In this document: positions 16,681 through 35,374 of the stretch, piece after piece
Layout of the letters: each line of letters opens with the position of its first letter
Position numbering within the stretch: the stretch's first letter is position 1
DNA from: Staphylococcus phage S6
Length of the DNA stretch: 64,000 nt
Sequence record: LC680885.1
Reading direction: 5' to 3' (one strand)
Made by a program: the position numbers and the translations under genes
Notes under the pieces: generated by a model
Database searches by the model: none
What the model was told of the DNA's origin: nothing
The model's input: the letters and a program-made list of their open reading frames with translations, nothing else

Positions 16681-16690
16681 TATATTATAA
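16681..16690 (+). promoter_or_regulatory. TATATTATAA motif upstream of the RNAP beta-C gene
   Basis: Exact 10-mer, then hairpin tgtagaatat...atattctaca, then SD. Confidence 0.35.
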
Positions 16691-16758
16691 GATTGTAGAA
16701 TATTAAGAGCATGATATTCTACAAATATATTCATTATTATAGGAGAGTGTATTAAGAT

Positions 16759-18900
16759 ATGACAAAAGACAAAACACAAAGAATGGTAGAAATTGAAGAT
16801 AAGCGAAGTCATGAGTTTTTATCAGAACCTCTATTAATGCCTAACGTTAATAGAACTAATGGTAACAGATCACAAATGTTTACATCTCACATTGGTCAAT
16901 GTATTCAATTAACTGGAGCTGAACCACCTTTAATTCAAACTGGTTTTGAAAATCAAGTAGGTAAATATTCAACTGGATACAAGAAAGCTAATAGAGATTT
17001 TGAAGTTATTTATAAATTTGAAAAGAATAAGTACGTTAATTACTATTTAATTAAGTACAAAGATAATGATGAATATGATGTAATTATTAGAGAAGAAGCT
17101 AATCACTTAGCTGAGAAGTTCGGAAATAAATATAATAATGATGAAATTGATAAACTAAAAGTTGGAGATACTGTTAGTAAAGAAACTGTATTATTTAAAG
17201 ATCAAAACTATGATGAAGATAATAATTTCCAATATGGTGCTAATGCAACTTCTGTATTCTTACCATTCAAAGGTATGACGAATGAGGACGGAATTGTAGT
17301 ATCAGAATCATTAGCAGAGAAAATGTCAAGTTATTTTGTAAATGTAATCAATATCACTATCAATACAAACGATATTCCTTTAAATTTATATGGAAATGAA
17401 GATGAGTATAAATCATTTCCAGATGTAGGTGAAGAAGTTCAAAATGGAGTATTGTGTGCAACTCGTAGATTGAATTACGATGAGATTATTCATAAATTTA
17501 AAAATGAAATGCTTACTAAAACATTAGAAGATGATAATGCTTATAAAGTTCACGGTAAAGTTATTGATATTGATGTACTTAATAATGAAGATATTGAAAA
17601 ATTAGAAAATCAAAAATATTCAGAGCAATTTGTCAAGTATATTAAAGAATTAAGACACTTTTATAAAACATTTGTAACTGTTACAGATGATATTGTACGT
17701 AAAAAGAAATTTAGTAATGACTTAATTAGAATTCATAATAAATTTAAAGGTTATATTGATGATAACGCTAAATTAGTTTATGACAATAATCAATTTGATA
17801 AAATTATCTTTAGAGTTAAAGTTTTAGAAAAGAAACCTTTAGTTCATGGATCGAAAATCACCACACGCTATGGGGGTAAAGGAGTCGTAGCTGAAATTGT
17901 ACCTGATGATCAAATGCCAATGATCACAGAGTTCGATGGAGAAGACTTCACTAAAGATTCTACTAAAACACCAATTAGTAAACGAGTAGATTTAATCCAT
18001 AATAATATGGGTATCATTAACCGTGGAAATCCATCAGCTTTAATTGAGTTAGAATTAAATCATGTATCAAATGTAATAAGACATCGTATAAGTAAATTAG
18101 ATGATGTTAATCAACAGAAAGAATATCTATTAGGATATATTAAAGATGTAGATAAAATTTCATACGATAATTATGTTAAATTATTTAATCAATTAGATTT
18201 ATCTGAAACTAAAGAAGCTATTAATGAAATTATTAAAGAAGGTATTGTATTACATCAAGCACCATTCTTTGGCAATATTGATTCAGAACAATTAAGATAC
18301 GTATTTAATAAATATAATATTAAGAAAAATAGATTAAATATAAGTAATAGAACATTCATGGTTGGAGATTTATATCACTTAAAACTTAAACATGAACCGT
18401 CTGGTAAATTAAGTGCAAAATCTCTTGACTTTAACAATTACAGTGGAATTCCTACTAGAACTCCAGATAGTAAAAAGTATCTATCAAGAATTAATAATAA
18501 TCCACTTAGAATTGGCGAGATGGAAACATCTAATATGATGATCGGTGGATCTATTAAAGCAATCAATCAATTAACGAATATGTATTCAAATAACCCAGAT
18601 ATGCGTAAACGTTTATTAGTTGAATTGTATACAGGTAATCCATTTAAGATCAATACAGAGAGTATACAAAAACGAACTCAAAATAATAATACTAAAGTAC
18701 TTAATGCTTACTTTAGTCCATTGAATGTTAGTATGACATTTGATGAACCTGAAGAAGATGAATTACTAGATATCATGGATTTAAATGAAGACCAATTAGA
18801 ATTCTTAATGGAAAAATACGAAAATTTAGATGATATCAATGATTTAACACCTCAAGAAATAAATGGTTTAGTTAAAGAAATTATTGAAGAAAGTAAATAA
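16759..18900 (+). CDS. Multisubunit RNA polymerase beta subunit, C-terminal fragment (split beta)
   Basis: NRTNGNRSQMFTSHIGQ resembles NRALMGANMQRQ. TRYGGKGVVAEIVPDDQMP resembles GRHGNKGVxSxIxPxEDMP. LRIGEMETSNMMIGGS resembles GQRFGEMEVWALEAYGA. Confidence 0.8.
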   Translation: MTKDKTQRMVEIEDKRSHEFLSEPLLMPNVNRTNGNRSQMFTSHIGQCIQLTGAEPPLIQTGFENQVGKYSTGYKKANRDFEVIYKFEKNKYVNYYLIKYKDNDEYDVIIREEANHLAEKFGNKYNNDEIDKLKVGDTVSKETVLFKDQNYDEDNNFQYGANATSVFLPFKGMTNEDGIVVSESLAEKMSSYFVNVINITINTNDIPLNLYGNEDEYKSFPDVGEEVQNGVLCATRRLNYDEIIHKFKNEMLTKTLEDDNAYKVHGKVIDIDVLNNEDIEKLENQKYSEQFVKYIKELRHFYKTFVTVTDDIVRKKKFSNDLIRIHNKFKGYIDDNAKLVYDNNQFDKIIFRVKVLEKKPLVHGSKITTRYGGKGVVAEIVPDDQMPMITEFDGEDFTKDSTKTPISKRVDLIHNNMGIINRGNPSALIELELNHVSNVIRHRISKLDDVNQQKEYLLGYIKDVDKISYDNYVKLFNQLDLSETKEAINEIIKEGIVLHQAPFFGNIDSEQLRYVFNKYNIKKNRLNISNRTFMVGDLYHLKLKHEPSGKLSAKSLDFNNYSGIPTRTPDSKKYLSRINNNPLRIGEMETSNMMIGGSIKAINQLTNMYSNNPDMRKRLLVELYTGNPFKINTESIQKRTQNNNTKVLNAYFSPLNVSMTFDEPEEDELLDIMDLNEDQLEFLMEKYENLDDINDLTPQEINGLVKEIIEESK

Positions 18901-18907
18901 ATAAATG

Positions 18908-18947
18908 GGAGTAATGATCATTATTTTGATCATTACTCCTATATTTA
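18908..18947 (+). terminator. Terminator hairpin
   Basis: Stem ggagtaatgatca/tgatcattactcc followed by tatattt. Confidence 0.5.
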
Positions 18948-18953
18948 AAGGAT

Positions 18954-19508
18954 GTGTTTAAAATTTATCCTGATTACGATGAATTTTTAAAGAAAGAGTT
19001 AGATCGCTTTGGAATTGATACAGATAGCATAGCTTATCATTCTGATCTTAATTACAATTATTGTAAAGAGAAATTAGAATCAATTGAAAAGGAAGATAAA
19101 GAAATGGAATTTAATTATTTGAATTTAGAAGATATATCTTTAAATAAAGAAGAGACAAGTGGAGTTATGACTATAAGAGAATTAGTAAATACTATTGATC
19201 ACTTGATATATACAGAAAATGAAGTTACACCTCTATACTACTTCTTTATGGATAAAATCGATTCACTTCCTATGATTAATATGATTACTTATAAAAAGGC
19301 AGCTAACACATTCTATGAAGAGTATAAAAGATATAACACTGGAAATCATTCAGCTTATATAAATATTAAAGGAGAATGGAAACAGTTATCATTTAATCAA
19401 TTTAAAGAATCTTTAAAAGAAGTTTTATTATCTTCACATAAAGAAAGCAATGTTGATAAATTATTTAAAGAGTTAAATAATTTAACTGTAAAAGATAATT
19501 TTTCATAA
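18954..19508 (+). CDS. Hypothetical protein (GTG start)
   Basis: aaagga followed by GTG 18954. Confidence 0.45.
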   Translation: MFKIYPDYDEFLKKELDRFGIDTDSIAYHSDLNYNYCKEKLESIEKEDKEMEFNYLNLEDISLNKEETSGVMTIRELVNTIDHLIYTENEVTPLYYFFMDKIDSLPMINMITYKKAANTFYEEYKRYNTGNHSAYINIKGEWKQLSFNQFKESLKEVLLSSHKESNVDKLFKELNNLTVKDNFS

Positions 19509-19538
19509 TTATTCTTAGATCAAAATTAGTAATAAGTA

Positions 19539-19548
19539 TATATTATAA
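19539..19548 (+). promoter_or_regulatory. TATATTATAA motif
   Basis: Exact 10-mer, then hairpin. Confidence 0.35.
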
Positions 19549-19551
19549 ATA

Positions 19552-19600
19552 TGAGACAATGTTCATTAACTTGATCATTGTCTCATATATTGTTTTATTT
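19552..19600 (+). terminator. Hairpin plus T-run (terminator-like) immediately downstream of a TATATTATAA motif
   Basis: Stem tgagacaatg/cattgtctca followed by tatattgttttattttttat. Confidence 0.5.
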
Positions 19601-19629
19601 TTTATAAAAATAAGGAGATGAATTGGATA

Positions 19630-21507
19630 ATGGAAAATAATACATTAAATTCGTATATAAAGGATAATTTTAAATATTTTAAAGATGATAAATTAGAAAT
19701 TGATAAAATATTTAAATTTAAAGATGATAAGACTAAAGAAAAATTTGAAATGTTTTTTAATGGAGTTATATATACATTGAAAAATTTAAGTTATAGTGAA
19801 GTATCTAAAATGTATAATGAAACAATTAAAGAGAAAAGTAATGTTCAAGGTAAAGCTGAAAGTTATATAAATTATTTAAATAATGAATTGAAAAATAGAG
19901 GACTAGATGAAGAAACTAAAAAACTTTATAAAGATTTATTAATGACTTTAAAAGCTGATTTGAAAAGATATAATGCTAATTTAGATGACAGCATTATAAA
20001 TAAATTATTCAAAAATAAGAATATATCAATATCTTATTATAGTTTAATAGTACCTTATAATATTGCTAACGAAATTGAATTTAATAAAAACTATTATAGT
20101 TTTCTTGGATTAGATGATTTCACTAAATTCATAATCTTTCCATATTATCAACTTCTATATTTATCTAAAGGTAATCTAAAAAATATTCATATAAAGAATA
20201 CAGACATAAATCTTCATAGTTACTTTATTGATATAATAAAGAAGTATATTAGAAATTTAATAGATAATAAAGATTTAGATACATTAAAAGAATTATTAGA
20301 CGTATTAACAAATGAGCACGAATATTTAAGATCTCTAAGACATACCGACTATAGAAAAGGTAATGGAAAAAATTTATTAGAGTTACTAATAGAAATGAAT
20401 TTTAATGAATTTAAGGAAATATTATATGAAATGATATATATTATAATGAATAATAACTTGAAAAAAGAATTAAAATCAGAAATGAATTATGATATATACA
20501 AGCATAGTATACTTTTAGTAAGTTTAATGAATAATGAGGTAGAAGAACATAGACAAACTAAATTTAATAGTAAATTTTTAATAGAGAGTAATAATACAAT
20601 TAGAGCAACTGCTATTTCAGATTCATACGGTAAAAATGAGTACTACCAAAATAACTTATTAGGTCACTATATTAATGATCTATATGTAGATAAAAATAAA
20701 ATAAATAAATTTAAAAGAGTTAATAAAGTTAGAAGTTTTAAATCTTTTATTTATTTAACTAACCAAAGATGTATTATCGGTGGTGAGAAATATTATAAAT
20801 ACTTGTATAAATATTTATTTGATCCAAGTAATTTAACTAGAGAAGAGTTTGAAGTATCTACATTATTAATTAAATTAATAACTTGTAAATCTAGTAATCA
20901 ATTAAAGAAAGTTATGGAAAATGCTAAAACTGACTCTGTATTAAATAATATTTTATTTGAAAATGAAATTAGTGATATAATTAAAATTGGTATACAGATG
21001 AATATTAATACTATATTCAATAAAAAAGGTTTAAGTAAAATTAATACAGTTGATTTAACTGTAGGAAATATTGTAAATCCTTTGTTATATAATAAAGCAA
21101 ATGATTATGAAGAACAAACAGAAATCATTGATTCAGTATTTAAAAATTTTACTTATGATATAGATATCAATTTTGATAAATATTATTATAAAGATTTAAA
21201 TGAATATTTTGAAAATAAATTAAATTTAGGTCTTCTAAAAGAATCAAATATAGATATTAGTATTAATATTAATTATAATAAAATTGCAAAAACTATTGTA
21301 AATAATATTAAAGATAAGCTTAGAGGAAAATATCATTTTGAAAGGAATGAATTTATTATTACTTACGATAAGATGAATATTACTCGTTTAACCACTACAG
21401 AATTTTGTAATGGTTTATGTGAATATTTAAGTAAATACTTCCCAGAAGAAGCTAAAAAGTTAAATAAGAGTTTTAGAGCTGAAATTGTAAATACAATGTT
21501 TAGATAA
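19630..21507 (+). CDS. Hypothetical large protein (~625 aa)
   Basis: SD ggagatgaattggataATG. The track start 19618 uses the ATG inside the SD motif. Confidence 0.55.
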   Translation: MENNTLNSYIKDNFKYFKDDKLEIDKIFKFKDDKTKEKFEMFFNGVIYTLKNLSYSEVSKMYNETIKEKSNVQGKAESYINYLNNELKNRGLDEETKKLYKDLLMTLKADLKRYNANLDDSIINKLFKNKNISISYYSLIVPYNIANEIEFNKNYYSFLGLDDFTKFIIFPYYQLLYLSKGNLKNIHIKNTDINLHSYFIDIIKKYIRNLIDNKDLDTLKELLDVLTNEHEYLRSLRHTDYRKGNGKNLLELLIEMNFNEFKEILYEMIYIIMNNNLKKELKSEMNYDIYKHSILLVSLMNNEVEEHRQTKFNSKFLIESNNTIRATAISDSYGKNEYYQNNLLGHYINDLYVDKNKINKFKRVNKVRSFKSFIYLTNQRCIIGGEKYYKYLYKYLFDPSNLTREEFEVSTLLIKLITCKSSNQLKKVMENAKTDSVLNNILFENEISDIIKIGIQMNINTIFNKKGLSKINTVDLTVGNIVNPLLYNKANDYEEQTEIIDSVFKNFTYDIDINFDKYYYKDLNEYFENKLNLGLLKESNIDISININYNKIAKTIVNNIKDKLRGKYHFERNEFIITYDKMNITRLTTTEFCNGLCEYLSKYFPEEAKKLNKSFRAEIVNTMFR

Positions 21508-21523
21508 AAAGGAGAAATTAAAG

Positions 21524-22078
21524 ATGGATGTTAAAAAAACGTTTAATGCAGATATTATGGAGACAGATAGAAGAATTTTCTATAACATTATTAACGTAGA
21601 AATGTCTCTTAGTGATAAAAGAAAAATGTATAATAAAGTCAATGATGAAAATGAGGTTTTAACATATGTATTTGATAGTTACACAGATTACGTATTGATG
21701 GAAAATGAAGGTATAATGACTATGGCAAAAGATTTAAATGATTTCATTAAACATTCTATTTTCGATTACCATTTTTCCTCTTTAATAAAACAATTTTTAC
21801 CTTCGACCAACTTCCGGAATTTTGGAGATTTTGTCCTTATGTTAGAAAGAGAATTATTTGCACCTAATCAAGAAACTTTAAGTCAATTCTCTTCAAAAGA
21901 TGATATAATTTATGTGTACTATAATACTACTCTAAATAAAATAATTATTGTTGATCACATTATGTACTTAAAAGCACTAATGGAGTACGTTAAAGAAGAA
22001 AAAGATTTCTATGAAGATTTATATATAGAATTTGAAAAAGAAGTTAAAAAATATTTAGTTGAAAATAACTTTAAATAG
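21524..22078 (+). CDS. Hypothetical protein
   Basis: SD aaaggagaaattaaagATG. Confidence 0.6.
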   Translation: MDVKKTFNADIMETDRRIFYNIINVEMSLSDKRKMYNKVNDENEVLTYVFDSYTDYVLMENEGIMTMAKDLNDFIKHSIFDYHFSSLIKQFLPSTNFRNFGDFVLMLERELFAPNQETLSQFSSKDDIIYVYYNTTLNKIIIVDHIMYLKALMEYVKEEKDFYEDLYIEFEKEVKKYLVENNFK

Positions 22079-22095
22079 AGGAGAGATAATATTTA

Positions 22096-22836
22096 ATGAA
22101 TGAATATGGTAAAATTAATAAAAAAGTTTTTAATATAGATCGTAGCAACTTTGAAGTAGTTTTAATGGACTACATGGATACTAAACAGATGAAAAATAAT
22201 TACAATAGAAATATAACCGATCAAGAAAAAATTGATCGGTTAATACCTTTAATTAAACAACAAGAAAATGAACAAGATGAGGGTAGAATATTTGAAAATG
22301 CTAGAAGATATGAACTTCTTTTAGCTAAAACATTTGAATACTCTCTTAATGGAAAATTAGAATTATACAAATTAAAAGAAGTATTAAATTATTACGAAGA
22401 AAAAAATCTTTTTAATATAGTATATCCAAATTTTAAATACACTTTTAATGTAGTTTCACCCAGTAAAGAGTATTCCTTATTGTCTTTAAAAACTAAAATA
22501 TTTTTAATTATAGAAACTATTATAGACTTTATTAAAAATGATTATGTAGAAGATAATCTTTCTATTAAGTTAATTTTAAATTCAGAAGAAATAATGATTG
22601 ATACACTTGATTTAAACGAAAAATCATTGTATAATATCTTTAATCTATCAAGTAAATATACAAATGAATTATTATCTTATAATGGAGATTATTTGTTCTC
22701 ACATGATCAAATAAAACGTATAGAAAATATAAATAATATTTTATTTAACGATATATACAAAGATAAAGATAAAGAAATTTTAGAATTTTTATCTAAGAAA
22801 GTAAAAAATAAATACATTTCAAAATATTTTAAATAA
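22096..22836 (+). CDS. Hypothetical protein
   Basis: SD gaggagag. Confidence 0.6.
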   Translation: MNEYGKINKKVFNIDRSNFEVVLMDYMDTKQMKNNYNRNITDQEKIDRLIPLIKQQENEQDEGRIFENARRYELLLAKTFEYSLNGKLELYKLKEVLNYYEEKNLFNIVYPNFKYTFNVVSPSKEYSLLSLKTKIFLIIETIIDFIKNDYVEDNLSIKLILNSEEIMIDTLDLNEKSLYNIFNLSSKYTNELLSYNGDYLFSHDQIKRIENINNILFNDIYKDKDKEILEFLSKKVKNKYISKYFK

Positions 22837-22853
22837 ACAGGAGTGAATAGGAT

Positions 22854-24023: not shown

Positions 24024-24056
24024 AAATGAATTAAAAAGATAGAGAGGAGAAAATTT

Positions 24057-24242
24057 ATGACATTTTTAATTGGTATCTTAACTATTATTTTAATTTGTTT
24101 AGTGATAATAGGAGTGTTTTTATTTGTATCAGGTCTGATAAGTTTGTTACTTTCAACAAGTAATTTTGAAGAAGATATAATAACAACGAGTATATCAGGT
24201 TTATTTGCCATCATATTCTTTCTTATACTGTCATCGTTCTAA
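24057..24242 (+). CDS. Small membrane peptide, paralog of 24277..24504
   Basis: SD gagaggag. MTFLIGILTIILICLVIIGVFLFVSG parallels MFALLGILAIIFLLLIFIGLPLFVMG. Confidence 0.5.
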   Translation: MTFLIGILTIILICLVIIGVFLFVSGLISLLLSTSNFEEDIITTSISGLFAIIFFLILSSF

Positions 24243-24276
24243 CAAAAATATTTTTTAATAAAAAGGAGAGAAAATT

Positions 24277-24504: not shown

Positions 24505-24531
24505 TCATTTAAAATAAAAAGGAGAAATATT

Positions 24532-26523
24532 ATGTTAAAATTTAATGAAATTAATGAAAGTAATTTAGATGACGTACAAAAATATTTAGAGGAGCAATCT
24601 TATGTATATTATAATACATCAGATCAACCAGAATTAACTGATGAAGAATTTGACAAACTATTAAGAGAATACGAAAAGTTCCGTCCATTTAATGGCGGAG
24701 CTTTACCTTCTAAAGGTAAAAAATTAGTAGATGTTTCACATGAATATCCTGAATTAGTAGGAACAGTTTCTAAGGTTAATTCAGTTGAAGAATTAGCTGA
24801 ATGGATTGAAGAAAAAGGACTAATTAATAGAGAATTATTAATTACACAGAAATATGATGGTAATTCAGTATTAGTTATTTTAACTACTAAAGGAGATTAT
24901 TTAGTAACTAAATCAGCATTAACTAGAGGTAAAGATGGTAAAGGTGCTGACTTAACTGACTTCTTCAGTCATATTAAAATTAAAAAATCAGATGTCGATA
25001 TTAATGCAGTTGATTTATCTGAAGACGATATTGATATCGCTATTAAGTGTGAAGCAGTAATGAGTTATAGTAACTTTAATAAGATTGATGAAGAGTATGC
25101 TAACCCTAGATCAATCGTTGCAGGATTATTAAACTCAGATGATGGATATAAGAAACGTAAGTTAATTAATTTATTACCATTGAGAATTAATATTAGTAAT
25201 AAAGAATTAACTCGACAAGAAGAATTAAATTTAATTTCAGCAATTACTAGTCATAGTACTGTATTTGATCAGCTTGATCCACAGTATAATTTTGTTATGG
25301 AAGATGAACACGATTATAAAGACTTTAATGAATTATATCATCAGATAGCTGATGAAAGAGAGTATTATGAATACATGATTGATGGATTAGTTATTGAAGC
25401 TCTTGATGAAGATGATAGAAATCGTTTAGGTAGATTAAATGATCGTAATAAGTTTGATGTAGCATTGAAATTCCCATATATGACTAAAAAGACTAATGTT
25501 ATTGATATTGAATTTGATGTATCTGAAAATGGTACAGGTAGATATACACCTGTAGTTAGATTTGAACCTATTTATTTTAATGGTGCTAAATGTGAAAGAG
25601 TTTCTATTTCTAACTATAAACGTTTTAAAGAACTTCAATTAGTTAAAGGACAAGAAGTTATTATTGAATATCGTAATGATGTTTTGAGTTATTTAACTCC
25701 ATCTCCTACTAACGAAATTACTGGAGAACCTATACCGTTCATTAAAGAGTGTGTATACTGTGGTGAAGAACTTGAAGTTAATGAAAATGAAACATTTGTA
25801 TCATGTATTAATAACGATTGTGAATGTAGAGTATTAGGTATTATTAACAACTATGTAGATAAAATGAGTATTAAAGGAATTGAATATTCTACTATTAATA
25901 AGCTTTATAAAGGTAACAAACTACCTAACGGAATCCAAAGTTTATATGAAATTGATAAAAACGATATTATGCAAGTAGATACTTTTAAAGAAAAATCAGC
26001 TCAGAATATTATTAATACAATTCATAAAAATAAAGAATATTATGACTATGATGTATTAGGTTCATTAGGATTAAATGGAGTTGGAAGAACTACATTTAAA
26101 TTAGTTACTAAAGTCTATGATCCACAAGAAATAGATTATACAGATTTAAGTATTAAAGATTTAACTTCTATTAAAGGAATCGCTGATATTACTGCTGAGA
26201 TTATTATTAATGGTTATAAACAGAATAAAGATTTAATTGAATTCTTATTTAATGAATTGGATGTTAAATCACTTAAAAAAGAAATGGAAGCTAATAAAGA
26301 TGATTCAGTTGAGCCAATGAATATTGTATTTAGTGGATTTAGAGATGCTGAATTTAAAGAACAGTTAGAACTTAAAGGTCATAAAGTAACTTCATCAGTT
26401 TCAGGTAAGACTGATTTATTAGTTACTCCAGATCCAAATTCAGGTTCATCTAAGATTAATAAAGCTAAAGAAAAAGGTATCAAGATCATTGATATTGAAA
26501 GTTCTAAAGGTGAGTTGTTATAA
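24532..26523 (+). CDS. ligA: NAD-dependent DNA ligase (LigA type)
   Basis: Adenylation motif KYDG (ITQKYDGNSV). Cys4 zinc finger CVYCGEEL...CINNDCEC. C-terminal BRCT (IVFSGFRD...KTDLLV). Confidence 0.85.
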   Translation: MLKFNEINESNLDDVQKYLEEQSYVYYNTSDQPELTDEEFDKLLREYEKFRPFNGGALPSKGKKLVDVSHEYPELVGTVSKVNSVEELAEWIEEKGLINRELLITQKYDGNSVLVILTTKGDYLVTKSALTRGKDGKGADLTDFFSHIKIKKSDVDINAVDLSEDDIDIAIKCEAVMSYSNFNKIDEEYANPRSIVAGLLNSDDGYKKRKLINLLPLRINISNKELTRQEELNLISAITSHSTVFDQLDPQYNFVMEDEHDYKDFNELYHQIADEREYYEYMIDGLVIEALDEDDRNRLGRLNDRNKFDVALKFPYMTKKTNVIDIEFDVSENGTGRYTPVVRFEPIYFNGAKCERVSISNYKRFKELQLVKGQEVIIEYRNDVLSYLTPSPTNEITGEPIPFIKECVYCGEELEVNENETFVSCINNDCECRVLGIINNYVDKMSIKGIEYSTINKLYKGNKLPNGIQSLYEIDKNDIMQVDTFKEKSAQNIINTIHKNKEYYDYDVLGSLGLNGVGRTTFKLVTKVYDPQEIDYTDLSIKDLTSIKGIADITAEIIINGYKQNKDLIEFLFNELDVKSLKKEMEANKDDSVEPMNIVFSGFRDAEFKEQLELKGHKVTSSVSGKTDLLVTPDPNSGSSKINKAKEKGIKIIDIESSKGELL

Positions 26524-26970
26524 ATGAAATATTATAAGGTTAATTATAATGGTATATTGAAAATATTGAATCTAGATGATTTTGAAGATGATAGAATTAT
26601 TGAAACACTTAGTAATATTGAGTTATATTTAAAAGAAGATGAAGAAATTAGATTATTGGATTTATTTAAAAAGCCAACTATAGCAATGGACACTCGAATT
26701 ACAAAAGAAAGAGATAACCTTTATATGAATGGTCATCTCTTTTTAGAAGTTGAGAATGCATCATGTAAACTATGGAGTTACCATATTAATTTAAATGGTG
26801 ACGAAACATTAAATGAAATATATGAAAGGATATATAACGGATACGATAAAATTTTCTCTTTTAATAAAATGAGAGAAGATGGTCTATTATTTTTATATGA
26901 ATATGAACATTATACAGAAATATCTGAAAAAGAATATAAAGAAAATAAGGTTAAAGAAAATTTTAAATAA
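26524..26970 (+). CDS. YK-tail family member A1 (MKYY... ...SEKEYKENKVKENFK)
   Basis: Conserved N-terminus MKYYK.N..GI and C-terminal tail shared with 13 other ORFs. Confidence 0.6.
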   Translation: MKYYKVNYNGILKILNLDDFEDDRIIETLSNIELYLKEDEEIRLLDLFKKPTIAMDTRITKERDNLYMNGHLFLEVENASCKLWSYHINLNGDETLNEIYERIYNGYDKIFSFNKMREDGLLFLYEYEHYTEISEKEYKENKVKENFK

Positions 26971-26988
26971 AAAAGGAGATTTTAAATT

Positions 26989-27441
26989 ATGAAATATTAT
27001 ATTTTAACACAACAGGGGATTGCTGAAGTTTTAGGTATTGATAGTGAATCGGTTTATTGCTATAGAAATTTATTTAGAGATGATGAATTATATTTAAAAG
27101 AAGATGAAGAAATTAAATTTTCAGAAATTATTACTAATCAAACACCGGATATAGAATACAAAGTTGTTGGAACAAATAAAGATACCGTAACAGTGATAGC
27201 TTATATGGAAATAGATTTAGGTGAAGGAGATTATCATCAAATTGGATCTTGCAGAATGAAATTAGATAAAGATAGAACTCTAGAAGAAGTATACAATATT
27301 GTATATGAGAAAATGTCCAATAGAACTTTTTCATTCAATAAAGCTAAAGAAATGGGTATATCTTTATATGAAGAGAGTGATTATGAAGAAGTATCTAAAA
27401 AAGAATATAAAAAATACAAAGTAGAGAATAATTTTAAATAA
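26989..27441 (+). CDS. YK-tail family member A2
   Basis: SD aaaaggagattttaaattATG. C-terminal tail SKKEYKKYKVENNFK. Confidence 0.6.
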   Translation: MKYYILTQQGIAEVLGIDSESVYCYRNLFRDDELYLKEDEEIKFSEIITNQTPDIEYKVVGTNKDTVTVIAYMEIDLGEGDYHQIGSCRMKLDKDRTLEEVYNIVYEKMSNRTFSFNKAKEMGISLYEESDYEEVSKKEYKKYKVENNFK

Positions 27442-27461
27442 TGGAATGAGTTGTTATTGTT

Positions 27462-27941
27462 ATGGAAAAATATTATAGATTAACTTTAGAGGGTGTTAGT
27501 TTTATTTTAAATGATTGTGAAGAAAACGATATAGTTAAATCAACTTATAATGAAGATGAAAATTATGTACATTTAGAATCTTTATTAAATGTAGGAATGC
27601 CTTATGAAACTATATATTTTAAAGATAGACATAAAATAGTATTTAAAGAAAATGAAAATATATTCAAGACATTGATAAATTCAATTAAAAATAAATATTA
27701 TGACTTTGATGATAAAAATATGGAATTTCAAGTAGGCATTGGTGATGATGAAATAAAGGTCAAATCACCGATGCCAGTATTTTCTAAAGTGAATATATTT
27801 AATTTTAAAGTTAATAAAGAAATGGACATTATTGATTTTATGGACAATTATAAAATTAATGTATTAATTAAAGATAAGCATTACATTGAAATTACTGAAA
27901 AAGAATATAAAAATATTATAATTAAAAATACATTTAAATAA
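27462..27941 (+). CDS. YK-tail family member A3
   Basis: Tail TEKEYKNIIIKNTFK. Confidence 0.55.
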   Translation: MEKYYRLTLEGVSFILNDCEENDIVKSTYNEDENYVHLESLLNVGMPYETIYFKDRHKIVFKENENIFKTLINSIKNKYYDFDDKNMEFQVGIGDDEIKVKSPMPVFSKVNIFNFKVNKEMDIIDFMDNYKINVLIKDKHYIEITEKEYKNIIIKNTFK

Positions 27942-27957
27942 TAAGGAGATTTTATAA

Positions 27958-28416
27958 TTGAAATATTATGAATTTAATAAAAAAGGAATTATTAAAATAT
28001 TAGGATTAGATACAGCTTATTTAAGAGAAGATGAAGATATTTTTAGAGAAGGAAATCTTTATTTAAAAGAAAATGAATCAATAAAAATAAAAGATATTAT
28101 AACAAATAAAAAAGATATGAAATTTAATTGCAGTCTTTATGAAGGATCTGAAGATAGCTCATTAATGAAAGCTAATTTAACTTTCAGACATGGGTCAGGG
28201 CAACTTTTATTGAATATTGAATATATTGATTTAAAAGAAATAAAAGATCACACTGTTGAAGAAGTTTACAAATACGCTAAAGATTTAGTTTTAAATAAAA
28301 CATTTTCTTTTAATAAAGCTGAAGAGCTTGGTATATGTTTATATGAAGGAAAAGAATATGAAGAAATTACTGAGGAAGAATATAAAAAATACAAAGTAGA
28401 AAATACTTTTAAATAA
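27958..28416 (+). CDS. YK-tail family member A4 (TTG start)
   Basis: aaggagattttataaTTG. Tail TEEEYKKYKVENTFK. Confidence 0.55.
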   Translation: MKYYEFNKKGIIKILGLDTAYLREDEDIFREGNLYLKENESIKIKDIITNKKDMKFNCSLYEGSEDSSLMKANLTFRHGSGQLLLNIEYIDLKEIKDHTVEEVYKYAKDLVLNKTFSFNKAEELGICLYEGKEYEEITEEEYKKYKVENTFK

Positions 28417-28436
28417 TGAAATGAGGTGTTATTGTT

Positions 28437-28886
28437 ATGGACAAATATTATAAATTAACAGCGGAAGGTATATTTGATGTTTTCAAATTAGATAAAAAAC
28501 ACATTATATTCCCAGAAGATAAAAATACAATAATAGATTTCAGATCAAAGGAAGAACGTATAGAGAAAATTAATGAACTTATATACTTTAAAGATAATCA
28601 AGAAATAACAATAAACTCATTATCTAATTTAACAGACAATATCGTAATAGATAAATCAGGTTCTAAATATACATTTAACCATTTAATAGAAATATCATTC
28701 ACTACTTTTAGTCATAAAAAAAGATATAACAAAACAATCAATGTACCGAATGTATTTAAAGGAACTGTAAGAGAAAATAGTAGTAGAAGTGCCTTAGATA
28801 TACCGATAGATATCAACAATATTGATAAAATAGAATTAACATTTAAAGAATATAAAGATCTAGTAATAAAAGAAACTTTTAAATAA
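28437..28886 (+). CDS. YK-tail family member A5
   Basis: Tail TFKEYKDLVIKETFK. Confidence 0.55.
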   Translation: MDKYYKLTAEGIFDVFKLDKKHIIFPEDKNTIIDFRSKEERIEKINELIYFKDNQEITINSLSNLTDNIVIDKSGSKYTFNHLIEISFTTFSHKKRYNKTINVPNVFKGTVRENSSRSALDIPIDINNIDKIELTFKEYKDLVIKETFK

Positions 28887-28902
28887 TAAGGAGATTTTAT
28901 AA

Positions 28903-29352
28903 TTGAAATATTATAAATTAAATAAGGATGGTTATATTAAATTTTTAGGGTTAGATGTTTTGCCTGGACTTAAAACCTCAATTGTTGAAAAAGAAATAAA
29001 AAATAAAAACTTCATTGTCAAATATTGCAATGGAGCAGATTTTTGTTTTACATTAGATGAAATTAATAAAATGAAAAACAAAGATATTTACCCTAAACTT
29101 GGATTTGAAAGTCTAACTGAAAAAGTTAATCATGAAATAGAAAATAATCCAATAGTATTTGTTAATAGAAAATATGAAGATGCTAAAGCTTTAATTCATG
29201 TAGATTTAATTATTAATAATGAAGAAACTACATTAATGACTATGCCAAGATTTAATATTAATTTTTTAAATCATAATTTGTATATGGAACACTTTGATGA
29301 AATAACAGAGAAACAGTATAAAAATATTATGGTAAAAGATTCATTTAAGTAA
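28903..29352 (+). CDS. YK-tail family member A6 (TTG start)
   Basis: Tail TEKQYKNIMVKDSFK. Confidence 0.55.
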   Translation: MKYYKLNKDGYIKFLGLDVLPGLKTSIVEKEIKNKNFIVKYCNGADFCFTLDEINKMKNKDIYPKLGFESLTEKVNHEIENNPIVFVNRKYEDAKALIHVDLIINNEETTLMTMPRFNINFLNHNLYMEHFDEITEKQYKNIMVKDSFK

Positions 29353-29367
29353 AACTCAATTTAAATA

Positions 29368-29377
29368 TATATTATAA
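29368..29377 (+). promoter_or_regulatory. TATATTATAA motif
   Basis: Exact 10-mer, then hairpin gaaagatgtat...atacatctttc. Confidence 0.35.
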
Positions 29378-29446
29378 AATTGTGAAAGATGTATGATACT
29401 TATACATCTTTCTAAAATATTTATTTAAAGAGAGGTGAAAAAGATA

Positions 29447-29863
29447 ATGAGTTCTAATTTTGATTATTATATATTGCAATCGAGTATTTCAGAAGCTAGA
29501 AAAAGGATTAAGAATAATCTAGATGTAAATGGATATATGGTTATAAGACAAATATTTTTCAGTCATTTAGATTATAAAGATTATTATAATATGTATCATA
29601 AAGTAAATAATGTAGAAGATTATTACAATGATATTATATTAGAAAGTATTAAGGATATTATATTTGATGAAGAAGGTAAACTTAATGAAGAAGTAGCATT
29701 TAGTTTAATTAGAGGTTCTAATTCGAATATATGTGCTTTAATTAAAGATAATAAAGGCAATTACAAAATTTATAAAAAAGATAAATATGTAATTAAAGCT
29801 ATAGAAGATTTATTATCTGAGAAAGATTATAAAAGAATATTGGTTAAAAATACTTTTAAATAA
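29447..29863 (+). CDS. YK-tail family member A7 (divergent N-terminus)
   Basis: SD agaggtga followed by ATG 29447. Tail SEKDYKRILVKNTFK. The track starts at GTG 29435. Confidence 0.5.
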   Translation: MSSNFDYYILQSSISEARKRIKNNLDVNGYMVIRQIFFSHLDYKDYYNMYHKVNNVEDYYNDIILESIKDIIFDEEGKLNEEVAFSLIRGSNSNICALIKDNKGNYKIYKKDKYVIKAIEDLLSEKDYKRILVKNTFK

Positions 29864-29929
29864 TTTGAAAGTGAATGCAACTTACTTTTATTATATTACA
29901 AGTGAGAGTTGGTGATTTTATTGATAAAA

Positions 29930-30574
29930 ATGCATTTAATAAACTTTCAAAAAAGGTCTATGAATAGTTATAAGAAGAATTTAAACACAATTGTACTTTT
30001 CATAGATTATGATAAAAATATTTTCAACCAAATTAATAATCAATTAGTTATAGATGTATTAGGTAATGATACTATAAGATTAAATAATGCTAATTATTCA
30101 TTAATGTTAGATGAGAAGATTTTTAGTTCTGAAAGGACAACAATTGATTTCTATAATAAAATAGTAAATAATGATATATTAAATATTATTAAAGAAAATA
30201 TATCTAATGTAGATAATTATTCTAAATTAAAAGAAATCAATAATATGACTGATAGTGAATTTAATGATATTATTAATAAAGATAATTTATTTAAATGTCA
30301 AAATAAATACTTCAGTATGAATAAAATACCTTATATAGAAAAAGAAATACCTGAAAGTTTTTATCTAGATCATTTTAAAGAGATTAATTTAGATTTTATA
30401 TTTGAGAAGCTTTTTGAAGAGAATAGAGAAGATGAAGAAAAATTAAAGTACGTTTATACTTTAGCTGAATTATTTCTAACACTCAAACAAGGTAAGAATA
30501 TATTTTATAATTATAATAAAGAGGTAGATAAGAAATATTATAGATCTATATTTATAAATTCTTTATTTAATTAA
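29930..30574 (+). CDS. Hypothetical protein
   Basis: The start is uncertain. The track uses 29909; ATG 29930 is also possible. SD is weak. Confidence 0.4.
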   Translation: MHLINFQKRSMNSYKKNLNTIVLFIDYDKNIFNQINNQLVIDVLGNDTIRLNNANYSLMLDEKIFSSERTTIDFYNKIVNNDILNIIKENISNVDNYSKLKEINNMTDSEFNDIINKDNLFKCQNKYFSMNKIPYIEKEIPESFYLDHFKEINLDFIFEKLFEENREDEEKLKYVYTLAELFLTLKQGKNIFYNYNKEVDKKYYRSIFINSLFN

Positions 30575-30599
30575 TATGATAAGAAAGGAGAGAAATAAT

Positions 30600-30893
30600 A
30601 TGAAGAAAATATACGGATTTAAAATAAAATATAATAAAAAAGTGGTAGATACTTTCACTTTTGAAAGTTTTGAAGAAGCTATGAATAAACTAGAATTATC
30701 ATTATTAGAAATTTATGACTCAGAAGATTTTACAACTATGCAATTAATTTTAAACACATATGACATTGAAGAAATTAATGAAGATAGTTTTAAAGATAAA
30801 TTAAGACTAAATCATCTTAATCACATTAAGAATTTTAGTATTGAATTGTTTTCTAAATATATTAACAATAATAAGGAAGAAGGAATTGCGTAA
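30600..30893 (+). CDS. Hypothetical protein
   Basis: SD aaaggagag followed by ATG 30600. The track start 30576 lies upstream of the SD. Confidence 0.5.
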   Translation: MKKIYGFKIKYNKKVVDTFTFESFEEAMNKLELSLLEIYDSEDFTTMQLILNTYDIEEINEDSFKDKLRLNHLNHIKNFSIELFSKYINNNKEEGIA

Positions 30894-31108
30894 TGTTCGA
30901 GGAAAGTAAAGTACCATTTTCATTTATTTATAAAGAAACTAAATACTTCTTACACAGAAGAAATATTAAGAATTTCCCTAATGGAGATTCTGAATTCTTA
31001 TTGTATGGAGATGAAAATGGGAAGTCATTCATAATAGAAGAAAGTAAATTAGAAAACTTAATTGAACAACATGAAGTTGAAGTATCTTACGAAGAAGATA
31101 TTATTTAA
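30893..31108 (+). CDS. Hypothetical small protein
   Basis: ATG overlaps the upstream stop (gcgtaATG). Confidence 0.45.
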   Translation: MFEESKVPFSFIYKETKYFLHRRNIKNFPNGDSEFLLYGDENGKSFIIEESKLENLIEQHEVEVSYEEDII

Positions 31109-31112
31109 ATAT

Positions 31113-31123
31113 ATATTATTAAA
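31113..31123 (+). promoter_or_regulatory. TATATTATtAA variant motif
   Basis: Precedes conserved hairpin copy 4. Confidence 0.3.
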
Positions 31124-31125
31124 TT

Positions 31126-31163
31126 GAGGTAATGACATACAATTTGTCATTACCTCTAATATA
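31126..31163 (+). repeat. Conserved hairpin element, copy 4
   Basis: gaggtaatgaca-tacaatt-tgtcattacctc-taatata. Confidence 0.7.
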
Positions 31164-31189
31164 TTAAACAATCAAAGGAGAAAACGATC

Positions 31190-31573
31190 ATGAAGAAATT
31201 TTTAGTATTACCATTATTATTCGTTTTATTATTAACAGGGTGCTCTCAAGCTGATAAAGTTAGTCAGAATATGTCTGAAGAGTCAGATAATTTTAATGTA
31301 GTTAGAAAAGTAACTGTCATTAATGCAATTAAAAATGACATAATATTCCAAATGTCTGGACGTATGTCTATTAAAGCAGATAATGAGGATAACCAATTAG
31401 AAATAGTTGTAGAAAATGAAGATGGCAAATATCAGAAACATATCATTGGTTTATCTGATAATGTTTCATATACTGTTGAAGATGTTACAACTAAAAATGT
31501 AAGTAAATATCAATATGAAATTAATTATAATCCTAAAATGTGGATCCCTGCAAAACCAGATTATAAAGATTAA
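31190..31573 (+). CDS. Lipoprotein
   Basis: Lipobox LLLTGC|SQ. SD aaaggagaaaacgatcATG. Confidence 0.65.
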   Translation: MKKFLVLPLLFVLLLTGCSQADKVSQNMSEESDNFNVVRKVTVINAIKNDIIFQMSGRMSIKADNEDNQLEIVVENEDGKYQKHIIGLSDNVSYTVEDVTTKNVSKYQYEINYNPKMWIPAKPDYKD

Positions 31574-31598
31574 TATAATAGAATGGAGAGTATGATTT

Positions 31599-31895
31599 AT
31601 GTCTAAGAAAAAGAAATTAGAAAAAAGACTTAATGTAAGAATTAATCAAGAACAAAAGAAAGCTATTTTAAAACGTGAAGATATCGATAGAATGGATTTT
31701 GAGTTCATTACATTAGATAAAGAGAAACATGATGAAGAAGAAAAATTTGATATCAAAGTAAAATCTAACGATAAGTTTTCTCTAATTATCATTATTAAAT
31801 TCTTTTCTAAATTGTTGAATTTTAGTATTAAAAGAGATAAGAAAAAAGAAGATATAAAAGACGGTAATGAAGATTCTAATTTAGATAAAGAATAA
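31599..31895 (+). CDS. Small basic/acidic Lys/Glu-rich protein
   Basis: SD aatggagag. Confidence 0.5.
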   Translation: MSKKKKLEKRLNVRINQEQKKAILKREDIDRMDFEFITLDKEKHDEEEKFDIKVKSNDKFSLIIIIKFFSKLLNFSIKRDKKKEDIKDGNEDSNLDKE

Positions 31896-31902
31896 TAAAA
31901 AT

Positions 31903-31948
31903 GCCATAATACACTTAAATTGTGTATTATGGCAAATTATTTATTTTT
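31903..31948. terminator. Bidirectional terminator between convergent genes
   Basis: Stem gccataatacac/gtgtattatggc, flanked by a T-run on the plus strand (aaattatttattttt) and an A/T-run on the minus strand. Confidence 0.65.
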
Positions 31949-32243
31949 CAGGTTTAAAACGGTCTTTAAGTCTAGGATATAGACGTAGATGCGCTTTACG
32001 AGTAGGATCTGTAACAACAATTTGATTTGTTCTAGGATTTCTACGTTTACGCATATCTTCAGGTTTAACTTCAAGGACACCAATTTCAGGGATAATAGTT
32101 TTAGTTTGATCAGCATCATTTGCAGATTCAACAATTATTTCTATCATCTCATTATAAGCATCAACTAGTTCTCTTTGTGTTAATCCAGTACGTCTAGACC
32201 ATTCTCTAAAGAAGTGTTTTTGATCTTGAATTTGATTTAGCAT
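31941..32243 (-). CDS. HU/IHF-family DNA-binding protein (histone-like; TF1-like)
   Basis: GLTQRELVDAYNEMIEII...IPEIGVLEVKPEDMRKRRNPRTNQIVVTDPTRKAHLRLYPRLKD matches the HU beta-arm region (R-x-G-R-N-P-x-T). This is the only minus-strand gene within the plus-strand block. Confidence 0.75.
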   Translation of the reverse strand: MLNQIQDQKHFFREWSRRTGLTQRELVDAYNEMIEIIVESANDADQTKTIIPEIGVLEVKPEDMRKRRNPRTNQIVVTDPTRKAHLRLYPRLKDRFKPEK

Positions 32244-32325
32244 TTTATTAGTTCCTTTCCATATAATATATTTTTAATTTTTTTAGAAAATTGTTAATAT
32301 TTTACTAGCTTTTTTCTAAATTTTA

Positions 32326-32334
32326 TGATATAAT
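32326..32334 (+). promoter_or_regulatory. Extended -10-like element TGaTATAAT upstream of the RNAP beta-N/beta'-N operon
   Basis: tatgatataat lies ~100 nt upstream of TTG 32435, in a divergent intergenic region. No TATATTATAA motif on the plus strand here. Confidence 0.3.
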
Positions 32335-32434
32335 ATTGTTATGGAATTTCATAGTTGTAAAAAAATAATTTTTTGCAATAACTTAAATTTTTATATGGTT
32401 TCGAATTTTTAATTATAAGGAGAGTCAGATATCG

Positions 32435-34057
32435 TTGGGTAATTATTTAAGAAAAATTACGAAGAATATACAAGATGAGGTCAGTACAAAAGAGTCATTT
32501 AATGAGGATGTAATATACTTTAGGGAGAATGAAAACCTAGAAGATATTATATCTGATATTTACAAATCAGTAGAATTTATTAAAGGCGTAAAATTCATTG
32601 ATTGTAAAGTTGTTCCTCCAAGTGAAGTTTATGAGTACAATCAAATGACAGACAAACAATTTAAAGCAAGAGATTTTAGAAAAATCAACGTAGAAGAATC
32701 AAAACTATTAGAAGTTCAAATTACTGTAGAATTTGAATCAGCTGAAGGGGAAAAAGAATTATACACACATAAATTAGATTTCCCTGAACTTATAGAAGGT
32801 CAGTATTATTATATTAATGATAATAAGTTCTTCCCTATCTTACAATTAGCTGATACTGAATTCTATAAACCTAAAGCAAGTACAGTAGTAATGAAAAACT
32901 TATTACAACCATTATCAGTAAATGGTTCTAAAAAAGATGAACTTATTGATGATGATAAGAAAATGCCTAAGAAGTTAAGAGGTAGAACATTATACTTAGA
33001 AGTATTTAATAAAAATAAACCTGTTCCAGCATTTTTATTCTTTATTGCTAAAATGGGTCTAGATGAAACATTTGAATTCTTAGATATTAAAGAATATTGT
33101 GAATTAGTAGATACCAACGATGAAAAAGATGATGAACACTACTATTTTAGAATTAATAATAAAATAACTATTCAAGTTGATAAAGAATGGTTAGATCAAG
33201 ACGATAGATATAGAACTTCTATGGTCTTATGTATTAAAGATTTATTTAAAGGTATGAGAGCAGGATTAGATAAAGTATATGATAAAGAATTCTGGCTTAA
33301 GAATTTAGGATCTGTATTTAGTGGTTCTACTAACGTTGACACTAAAATTGAAAAATCTAATTCTATGATTTTATCATTTGATAGAATTTTAGATAGTCGT
33401 ACTAAAAATATTTCTAGATTAGATCCAGAAGATAAAGAATCAACTTATCATGTAGTTAAATACATGTTTAAAAACTTTGATAATCTTAATTTATTAGATA
33501 ATACAGATTTAGCTAATAAACGTTTAAGAGTATTAGAATACTTAACTTATCCACTGAATAGAAAGAACTCTGATACATCTTATCGTATGATTAATTTCAC
33601 AGATAAGAAACGTACAATTAAAAATCTTAAAGGATTATTCTCAGGTGTACCTCGTGATTTCTTATTAAAAACTATAGGAACATCTGAAGGAATTAGATAT
33701 TCCAATGCAGTTAATACAATTGACTTATTTACTAGAATTCTTAAAATGACTAAAGCAGGTCCACAAACTGCTGTTGATACTAGTAAACCATCTATTAGAA
33801 CTATTAATATCAATAATACTTATTTCGGTAGAATTGATTTAATAGCAACATCTTCAAACAATCCAGGTATTACACGTACATTAACACCATTCTGTGAGGT
33901 TAAAGATCCTGGTGAGAATGGTTCATTCTATTTTGAAAATAAACCTAACATCAGAGAAAATATTGACACAGATAATTTAGATAAACTAGAGAAAGAATCT
34001 GAAGACAATGAAGTTGTATTAGATATTAAAGAAATTGTAGAAGAGGATGACGAATAA
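32435..34057 (+). CDS. Multisubunit RNA polymerase beta subunit, N-terminal fragment (split beta)
   Basis: [25 protein letters not shown] resembles beta [46 protein letters not shown] resembles [31 protein letters not shown] resembles [20 protein letters not shown]. TTG start with SD aaggagag. Confidence 0.7.
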   Translation: [540 protein letters not shown]

Positions 34058-35367
34058 TGGCTAGATTTTTACTTAAGAATAAAGACTTATCAAAATTACC
34101 AGTAGTAACAAATCATGAATCAATTGATAAGAAAGGTGATTTCACTGAAGACGGTATCTTCAGTGAGAAAATCTTTGGACCTGATTCAGATGTAGATAAT
34201 ATTACAAATGAAGCTATAGTTTATTTAGGTAATAACTATATTATTACACCTTTAGGATATGACAGAATTAAAAAATTAATAGGTAGAAAAAGATTTGCTG
34301 AAATTATTAGTTCTGAAAAACCTATTGATGAAAATGGTAATGTAATTGAACCAGAAGATGACCATAATTCATATATTGGTTTAGTTGAATTTAGAAAGAA
34401 CTTCTTAAAGATTCTTAAAGAAGAAGTTAAACGTGATAAACGTAAAACTAAAGATTACAATAGAGTTGTTCAATGGTATTTAAATGGAACATTATTCCAA
34501 AATTATGTAACTGTATTTAGTCCTAAATTAAGACCGGCTACAGTTAATAAAGCAACTAAGACATTTAGACATTCAGAAATTAATAAAGAATTTAATTTAT
34601 TAATTGCTCATAGTAATAGTCTTAAAGAATTAGATGAACATTATACAGATGATTCAGTTGAACTACAAAAGTTAAACCTACTTAATAAAATTCAAGATGA
34701 CAACATGAATATCTATGATCGTATTATCAATGAAAACATTAAAGGTAAAATGGGTACTATTCGTAAATTAATTATGGGTAGTCGTGTAGGATATTCAGCT
34801 CGTTCAGTAATTGTTCCAGCTCCTGATTTAAAATTAAATGAAATTAGAATGAATTATACAATCTTCTTAGAAATATACAAACCACTATTAGCTAATTTAA
34901 TGTATGTAACGGAAAATATTCCATTACCTAAAGCAGAAGAAATATTAGGTAGAGCTTTAGATAACTTTAATCCTAAAGTATATAAATATATGAAAGAATT
35001 AGTTAACAAAACTGAAGGTGGAATGAGAGTAATTTTGAACCGAAATCCATCTATCTCAGAATCATCAGTTCAAATATTAAAAATTAAAGATATCATTAGT
35101 GATATTGACTCAGCTGTAGTAGGTATTAGTAATAATATACTTGCAGGTATGGGTGCTGACTATGATGGAGACACATTGAATATTATAGCTCTCTTCTCAG
35201 AAGAGCAATATGATATGTTAAAAGTACAAGATCCAGTCAATCAATTAATATCATATAATGATGGTCTATTTAATAGAACTTATTCACTTAATAAAGACTC
35301 ACAGATTGCAGTTTATTTATTAAATAATCCTAAATCAAAAGATGTAAGTATAAAAGCTAGTAAATAG
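34057..35367 (+). CDS. Multisubunit RNA polymerase beta' subunit, N-terminal fragment (up to ~70 aa past the catalytic DFDGD)
   Basis: DGIFSEKIFGP resembles beta' DGLFCARIFGP. GSRVGYSARSVI resembles GKRVDYSGRSVI. GADYDGDTLNI resembles NADFDGDQM. ATG overlaps the upstream stop (translational coupling). Confidence 0.8.
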   Translation: MARFLLKNKDLSKLPVVTNHESIDKKGDFTEDGIFSEKIFGPDSDVDNITNEAIVYLGNNYIITPLGYDRIKKLIGRKRFAEIISSEKPIDENGNVIEPEDDHNSYIGLVEFRKNFLKILKEEVKRDKRKTKDYNRVVQWYLNGTLFQNYVTVFSPKLRPATVNKATKTFRHSEINKEFNLLIAHSNSLKELDEHYTDDSVELQKLNLLNKIQDDNMNIYDRIINENIKGKMGTIRKLIMGSRVGYSARSVIVPAPDLKLNEIRMNYTIFLEIYKPLLANLMYVTENIPLPKAEEILGRALDNFNPKVYKYMKELVNKTEGGMRVILNRNPSISESSVQILKIKDIISDIDSAVVGISNNILAGMGADYDGDTLNIIALFSEEQYDMLKVQDPVNQLISYNDGLFNRTYSLNKDSQIAVYLLNNPKSKDVSIKASK

Positions 35368-35374
35368 ATTTTTT

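Follow-up and report, generated by a model that had tools for sequence, protein, structure and literature searches.

Genes for three subunits of a probable AR9-type non-virion RNA polymerase in Staphylococcus phage S6

We analysed a stretch of 64,000 nucleotides from Staphylococcus phage S6 (sequence record LC680885.1; "the window" below always means this whole stretch, with positions counted from its first letter), in which three open reading frames (ORFs) on the + strand carry hallmark motifs of the beta and beta' subunits of multisubunit RNA polymerases (RNAPs). We are highly confident that they encode the N-terminal half of beta (beta-N), the C-terminal half of beta (beta-C) and the N-terminal half of beta' (beta'-N), that is, three of the five subunits of the non-virion RNAP (nvRNAP) of an AR9/PBS1-related phage. 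An initial annotation, made from the sequence alone, had pointed out the three ORFs with their motifs and attributed them to a split RNAP of the phiKZ/AR9 type; all three ORFs and their motifs are indeed present, and they are orthologues of AR9 gp089, gp105 and gp270 with the same split points:

16759..18900, + strand: nvRNAP beta subunit, C-terminal half, 713 aa, uninterrupted; orthologue of AR9 gp089 (Pfam, PHROG, AR9 and PDB matches)
32435..34057, + strand: nvRNAP beta subunit, N-terminal half, 540 aa, TTG start; orthologue of AR9 gp105 (PHROG, AR9 and PDB matches)
34057..35367, + strand: nvRNAP beta' subunit, N-terminal half, 436 aa, with the catalytic DYDGD; orthologue of AR9 gp270 (Pfam, PHROG, AR9 and PDB matches)

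Split beta and beta' genes of the non-virion polymerase

Beta-C exhibits the motifs TTRYGGKGVVAEIVPDDQMPM (GGKGV...DQMP) and PLRIGEMETS (GEME), and the Pfam search identified in it the Rpb2_6 family (Rpb2 domain 6) with a score above the gathering cut-off (1.2e-9). The ORF matches PHROG 3295, an RNAP family (2.5e-104), and is 39% identical to AR9 gp089. Among the solved AR9 nvRNAP structures (PDB 7S00/7S01/7UM0/7UM1), chain 7S00_C is matched with an E-value of 4.9e-143, residues 13-665 of the query being aligned to residues 10-652 of the 665 of the chain, while the phiKZ chain 7OGP_C is matched over half of the length (1.4e-20).

For beta-N the Pfam scan of 32435-34057 gave no match, and the assignment is made because the ORF matches PHROG 2943 (RNAP family, 3.1e-41) and AR9 gp105 (33% identity), the latter also as chain 7S00_c (E-value 1.6e-73; query residues 18-518 to chain residues 13-493 of 496). 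Its start lies at the same position in the annotations of the related Staphylococcus jumbo phages PALS_2 and MarsHill. Beta'-N contains the motif AGMGADYDGDTLNII (GADYDGD) and the Rpb1_2 family (Rpb1 domain 2; Pfam, 3.2e-10, above the gathering cut-off), matches PHROG 2987 (RNAP family, 8.2e-50), is 38% identical to AR9 gp270 and aligns over residues 21-424 to chain 7S00_d (E-value 4.2e-69), up to the last residue of gp270. The stop codon of beta-N and the start codon of beta'-N overlap in ...GACGAATAATG (TAATG), as the initial annotation had noticed, and the MarsHill annotation places a ribosome-binding site inside the end of beta-N; translation of the two genes is probably coupled via this overlap.

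The best AR9 matches of the three ORFs (gp089, gp105 and gp270) are each annotated as "non-virion RNAP subunit" in the AR9 record, and these AR9/PBS1 proteins are the best phage matches outside Staphylococcus that carry the non-virion label. The split points of beta and beta' coincide with those of AR9, with beta' split shortly after the catalytic DxDGD loop, and only short acidic tails depart from this correspondence. Profile searches, which had been proposed as a check, yielded Pfam, PHROG and solved-structure matches far beyond the short motifs; since the alignments to the AR9 nvRNAP chains run nearly end to end, the similarity is not limited to motifs. The matches to solved structures settle, in our view, the identity of the three ORFs.

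The closest relatives of the window are Staphylococcus jumbo myophages with genomes of 259-274 kb. Over positions 32000-36000 the identity is 99.8% to vB_SauM-UFV_DC4 (DC4) and 99.5% to PALS_2, 93-97% to MarsHill, Madawaska and LY01, and 84-87% to SA1, PB50, AH12 and Machias. Indels set the window apart from PALS_2, including a 1353-bp insertion at the window start. MarsHill-like phages have been described to carry both RNAP sets, with evidence for uracil DNA (Korn et al. 2021), and S6 is presumably likewise an AR9/PBS1-related Staphylococcus jumbo myophage with uracil DNA. Beta-C is intact in the window, PALS_2, DC4 and SA1, with interrupted alleles in MarsHill, Madawaska, LY01, PB50, Machias and AH12; it is found in 3-4 pieces in MarsHill (L008 21105-23759, annotated with 4 exons), Madawaska, LY01 and PB50. 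For beta'-N, the interrupted alleles are those of LY01, Machias and AH12.

The initial annotation had considered neither beta nor beta' complete. This is correct for beta', which lacks its second half here, but not for beta, which is complete in the window as two polypeptides corresponding to its N- and C-terminal halves. The C-terminal half of beta' (beta'-C) and the fifth subunit had been expected outside the window; AR9 beta'-C (gp154) and the AR9 specificity subunit (gp226), used as tblastn queries against the window, gave nothing but noise (E-values above 0.9). All nine records of related Staphylococcus jumbo phages contain orthologues of beta'-C (33-35% identity to gp154) and of gp226 (29-31% identity over 87-90% of its length). 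In the near-identical PALS_2, beta'-C is located at 211500-213413 and the gp226-like gene at about 257.0-258.4 kb, i.e. ~130 and 175 kb beyond beta'-N; the fifth subunit is thereby documented for near-identical genomes (PALS_2, DC4) and predicted for the part of the S6 genome beyond the window.

No member of the alpha, omega or sigma families was identified by Pfam among 27 neighbouring or large ORFs of the window, which agrees with the earlier remark that such genes are not nearby. The paper on DC4 lists automatic "Sigma70", "omega" and "delta" labels in that genome, which look like misannotations. The description of the polymerase as sigma-independent is appropriate as regards the host sigma, but goes too far otherwise, because the AR9 enzyme needs its own subunit gp226, which has been termed sigma-like (Fraser et al. 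2022, PMC9209446).

We weighed our assignment against other explanations of the three ORFs. Both RNAP sets of these phages consist of split beta/beta' homologues, and the ORFs could accordingly be taken for members of the set packaged in the virion. The adjacent arrangement of beta-N and beta'-N, which we take to resemble the order of the phiKZ virion genes gp178/gp180, would also count in favour of this. However, in AR9 the best match of each ORF is a subunit classed as non-virion by both annotation and solved structure, the beta gene of the virion set occupies another locus, which ends at position 1894, and the family of AR9 virion subunits (gp078, gp145, gp189 and others) is represented by the exon at 1533-1894 and by none of the three ORFs. 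In the DC4 paper, moreover, the subunit detected in virions is another one (UFVDC4_00067, 1417 aa), and we consider membership in the virion set very improbable. Even less credible is a host origin of the ORFs as fragments of rpoB/rpoC carried as cargo with no polymerase role, for which one might cite their weak matches to bacterial beta and beta'; these matches are partial and reach 1e-8 to 1e-13, whereas those to the AR9 phage enzyme range from 1e-69 to 1e-143, and the genes are common to phages of the AR9, LPJP1, phiR1-37 and phiKZ types.

The fact that no single gene codes for a whole beta or beta' would be expected if the ORFs were decaying pseudogene remnants of once-complete rpoB/rpoC. 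Another alternative is that introns or inteins cause the apparent split and that the pieces are spliced into full-length subunits. Decay is contradicted by uninterrupted frames aligned end to end with functional AR9 subunits, by the intact catalytic DxDGD, GxKG and GEME motifs, by split points identical to those of AR9, and by amino-acid identities of 74-100% (mostly at least 81%) over the clades of Staphylococcus jumbo phages, to be compared with 56-58% in the divergent clades for the neighbouring ORF at 35430-36068; we consider this alternative hardly conceivable. Splicing has some appeal, inasmuch as relatives carry introns in these genes (beta-C of MarsHill has 4 exons, and the alleles of LY01, Machias and AH12 are interrupted) and the virion beta gene at the window start contains a group II intron. 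Nonetheless, the two halves of beta, though encoded on the same strand, are 13.5 kb apart and in an order unsuited to cis-splicing (beta-C upstream of beta-N), and ~20 unrelated genes lie in between; Rfam reported no intron within or beside any of the three ORFs, and the AR9 halves are separate chains (c, C and d of 7S00) in the solved enzyme. We regard splicing into full-length subunits as extremely unlikely, and retain the identification of the ORFs as beta-N, beta-C and beta'-N of the nvRNAP.

Expression signals and proposed mechanism

As a reference for early promoters, read by the virion RNAP, we used the AR9 consensus AAATATATATTAT-(N6)-G (Lavysh 2017, PMC5312081), taken from that work and from the annotated promoters of AR9. 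The signals around the nvRNAP genes and the genes with recognizable products in their vicinity are:

15305-16606: UvsX-like recombinase
16623..16652, + strand: terminator-like hairpin, downstream of the UvsX-like gene and ahead of the beta-C promoter
16676..16695, + strand: predicted AR9-type early promoter, exact AAATATATATTAT-(N6)-G, 64-83 nt upstream of the beta-C ATG (consensus match)
24532-26523: NAD-dependent ligase
31902..31934, bidirectional: terminator-like hairpin between the region of the beta-N operon and the upstream early promoter at 31107
31941-32243, minus strand: HU-like protein
32305..32345, + strand: conserved block CTAGCTTTTTTCTAAATTTTATGATATAATATTGTTATGG with TGnTATAAT, candidate promoter of the beta-N/beta'-N operon (conservation)
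36087-37139: primase

With at most one mismatch, the early consensus 13-mer occurs 19 times in the window, where 7.7 occurrences would be expected; all of 100 shuffled sequences had fewer than 19. Exact copies are located at 1896, 16676, 29363, 31107, 45192 and 49290, in addition to 13 sites with one mismatch. Most of these sites lie on the + strand a short distance ahead of an ORF, and the motif agrees with that reported from a MEME analysis of MarsHill. In PALS_2 the gp226-like gene is preceded by an exact copy of the consensus and beta'-C by a copy with one mismatch, which follows a hairpin as at beta-C. From these matches we predict that the beta-C, beta'-C and gp226-like genes are under early promoters of the virion RNAP.

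By analogy with AR9, the virion RNAP would enter the cell together with the DNA and transcribe the early promoters (AAATATATATTAT-N6-G), including those of nvRNAP genes. Four core polypeptides (beta-N, beta-C, beta'-N and beta'-C) would then assemble into a crab-claw core with neither alpha nor omega, and a fifth, gp226-like subunit encoded elsewhere in the genome would act like a sigma factor, reading deoxyuridines in the template strand of late promoters. The resulting nvRNAP may transcribe the late genes, including those for virion proteins and for the subunits of the virion RNAP, with no contribution of the host polymerase. The mechanism and its timing have been described for AR9 (PMC5312081, PMC9209446 and, in part, PMC5449584); in particular, gp226 reads the late promoter from the template strand, a recognition that depends on deoxyuridine (PMC9209446). 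Infection by AR9 continues when the host RNAP is blocked. For S6, gene content, motifs and the promoter consensus are what is observed, and the mechanism would be that of AR9.

Some points weigh against this reading. The early consensus was not found on the + strand upstream of the beta-N/beta'-N operon, and the hairpin at 31902-31934 together with the divergent HU-like gene parts the operon from the nearest upstream early promoter (31107). An AR9-like late promoter motif was not found in MarsHill (Korn et al. 2021). Assembly, timing, rifampicin independence and recognition of deoxyuridine in the template strand are furthermore extrapolated from a relative at 30-40% identity.

The upstream block of the beta-N operon (CTAGCWTTTTTCTAARTTTTATGATATAATAWTGTTATG) is kept in PALS_2, SA1 and AH12, with diverging flanks, and a like element, CTAGCTTTTTT-N10-TGnTATAAT, is present upstream of the UvsX-like gene (15230-15259). 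Both elements (32305-32345 and 15230-15259) are nearer to a host sigma-A extended -10 promoter than to the phage early consensus. The short pattern TGnTATAAT (TTTNTGNTATAAT) is not enriched in the window, and therefore the sigma-A-like element is no general promoter class there. Scans for generic sigma-70 promoters gave counts equal to the shuffled expectation in this DNA of 24% GC, and by eye no AR9 late-promoter motif (AACA-N6-TA/G) was seen upstream of beta-C and beta-N. We consider it rather unlikely that the beta-N/beta'-N/primase operon and the UvsX-like gene use a separate promoter class, CTAGCWTTTTT-N10-TGnTATAAT, instead of an early promoter of the virion RNAP. If they did, expression of two nvRNAP subunits in Staphylococcus jumbo phages would require either the host polymerase or a third class of phage promoters that is so far undescribed, which would be a departure from the fully host-independent AR9 scheme.

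The virion polymerase beta gene, its group II intron and other loci of the window

The split gene at the window start, which the initial annotation had considered as a possible source of a missing nvRNAP piece, turned out to be the end of the beta gene of the virion RNAP:

1..1532, + strand: 3' part of a predicted group II intron in the virion RNAP beta gene, 5' end off the window (Rfam; domains V/VI at 1449-1532)
1533..1894, + strand: last exon of the virion RNAP beta subunit, orthologue of AR9 gp078 and MarsHill gene 230 (translation, PHROG, homology)

The exon encodes ...VSNMEASALKAIGA..., the counterpart of the C-terminal GEMEVWALEAYGA region of beta, and matches PHROG 3233 ("RNA polymerase beta subunit", 1.5e-14). 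In the MarsHill record, the gene that immediately follows gyrA is annotated as a "viral RNA polymerase beta subunit" with two exons, and it aligns to the virion subunit gp078 of AR9.

The sequence upstream of the exon matches Rfam RF00029 (66.4 bits with a gathering score of 40, E-value 7e-11), and the end of the match coincides exactly with the exon junction, as defined by the start of homology to the intron-less MarsHill and DC4 alleles. The PALS_2 allele (L001 2112-2692) contains a 581-nt group II intron with no ORF, which starts with GTGTG, ends with AT and matches RF02004 (D1-D4) with 45.5 bits (cut-off 34.5). The features characteristic of group II introns (5' GUGYG, D1-D4, D5/D6, 3' AY and a precise junction) are thus all found, those of the 5' part in the PALS_2 allele, and the virion RNAP beta gene is predicted to be split by such an intron. 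In the window, an insertion at 84-1436 (1353 bp) replaces 16 nt of the PALS_2-type intron, 13-28 nt upstream of domain V, and carries the ORF 97-1446. The product of this ORF is a homing endonuclease that combines CapR-like and treble-clef modules with a weakly DUF2726-like C-terminus and has no reverse transcriptase; the candidacy of the ORF as an RNAP fragment was ruled out, as it is a homing endonuclease inside the intron. No relative of the endonuclease in the phage collection exceeds 35% identity, and an exact-sequence look-up of the protein in a public gene collection gave no match.

Among near-identical phages the locus is therefore found in three states, namely intron-less (DC4, MarsHill), with an ORF-less intron (PALS_2) and with an endonuclease-bearing intron (the window), the last being an allele newly invaded by a homing endonuclease. 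Group II introns with such an endonuclease in virion RNAP genes of jumbo phages were described in 2025 for AR9, PBS1 and LPJP1 (NAR, PMC12350094), and the intron of the window is therefore a further case of a known kind. The DC4 paper reports that Rfam found no introns in DC4, which fits a genome that lacks the group II intron of the window.

The ORF 35430-36068, located between beta'-N and the primase, is fast-evolving and was seen solely in Staphylococcus jumbo phages. As AR9 has gp226 next to the primase, we examined this ORF as a diverged fifth subunit and rejected it, having found no Pfam or PHROG match and no similarity to gp226; the sole tblastn signal of gp226 there is a chance-level fragment of 12-14 residues within beta'-N (35166-35217, E-value 5.3). 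A paralogue of the ORF (38% identity), likewise confined to Staphylococcus jumbo phages, is present at 12445-13053, a copy seemingly absent from that position in the PALS_2 annotation.

Tandem arrays of paralogous ORFs of ~150 aa are located at 26524-29352 and 42642-44147, with others at 40881-42009; their mutual identity is 33-47%, and they have essentially no family matches apart from one weak match to a PHROG annotated as "lipoprotein". The window has a GC content of ~24%, and nearly all genes up to ~55.7 kb are on the + strand. At ~55.7 kb both the sign of the GC skew and the gene orientation flip. Beyond this point the minus strand encodes, by correspondence with the MarsHill annotation, a 998-aa tail-fibre-like protein (locus 56220-59216), a RusA-like resolvase, a holin and others.

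Comparison with known systems

The split nvRNAP is already annotated and published for the group of PALS_2, DC4 and MarsHill (Korn et al. 2021; DC4 paper), and its biology is established by the solved AR9 structures, the annotation of MarsHill-like phages and the genome papers of DC4 and PALS_2; a reading of the sequence alone was sufficient to recognise a jumbo-phage split RNAP correctly. Five non-virion and five virion subunit genes are reported for MarsHill-like phages (Korn et al. 2021), and MarsHill and Madawaska annotate the genes studied here as non-viral RNAP beta and beta-prime. Elsewhere the public labels are weaker. In PALS_2 (MN091626), beta'-C (211500-213413) is labelled "delta subunit", and both beta-N (80507-82129) and the gp226-like gene are "hypothetical"; beta-N is "hypothetical" also in DC4, and beta'-N of AH12 is labelled "bifunctional beta-beta'". 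The present analysis may serve to correct such annotations and draws attention to a beta-N/beta'-N operon with no canonical early promoter.

MarsHill, Madawaska, Machias, PALS_2, DC4, SA1, LY01, AH12 and PB50 carry the same nvRNAP genes in the same order, with identities of 99.4-100% to PALS_2/DC4, 98-99% to MarsHill/Madawaska and 74-94% to the others, and differ by strain in the intron content of these genes. With the AR9/PBS1 nvRNAP (gp105, gp089, gp270, gp154 and gp226) this phage group shares the inventory of five genes, the split points of beta and beta', full-length identities of 33-39%, the early consensus before beta-C, beta'-C and the specificity subunit, and a genome presumed to consist of uracil DNA. 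In AR9, however, gp105 and gp270 are ~140 kb apart, whereas beta-N and beta'-N of the window are adjacent with overlapping codons; gp270 contains an intron that carries a homing endonuclease; the beta-N operon of the window is not preceded by the early consensus; and the subunits of the Staphylococcus phages have short acidic C-terminal tails absent in AR9.

The phiKZ nvRNAP (gp55, gp71/73, gp74, gp123 and gp68; PDB 7OGP) is likewise a split beta/beta' core with neither alpha nor omega, has a fifth subunit and is independent of the host polymerase, but the relationship is much more distant, and phiKZ differs in its late promoter (TATG), its DNA, which contains no uracil, and its phage nucleus. 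The Listeria jumbo phage LPJP1, although it has a 95-aa ORF between beta-N and beta'-N and no overlap of stop and start codons, is the closest relative outside Staphylococcus (37-46% identity) and shows the same succession of the ligase, small ORFs, a minus-strand ORF, beta-N and beta'-N.

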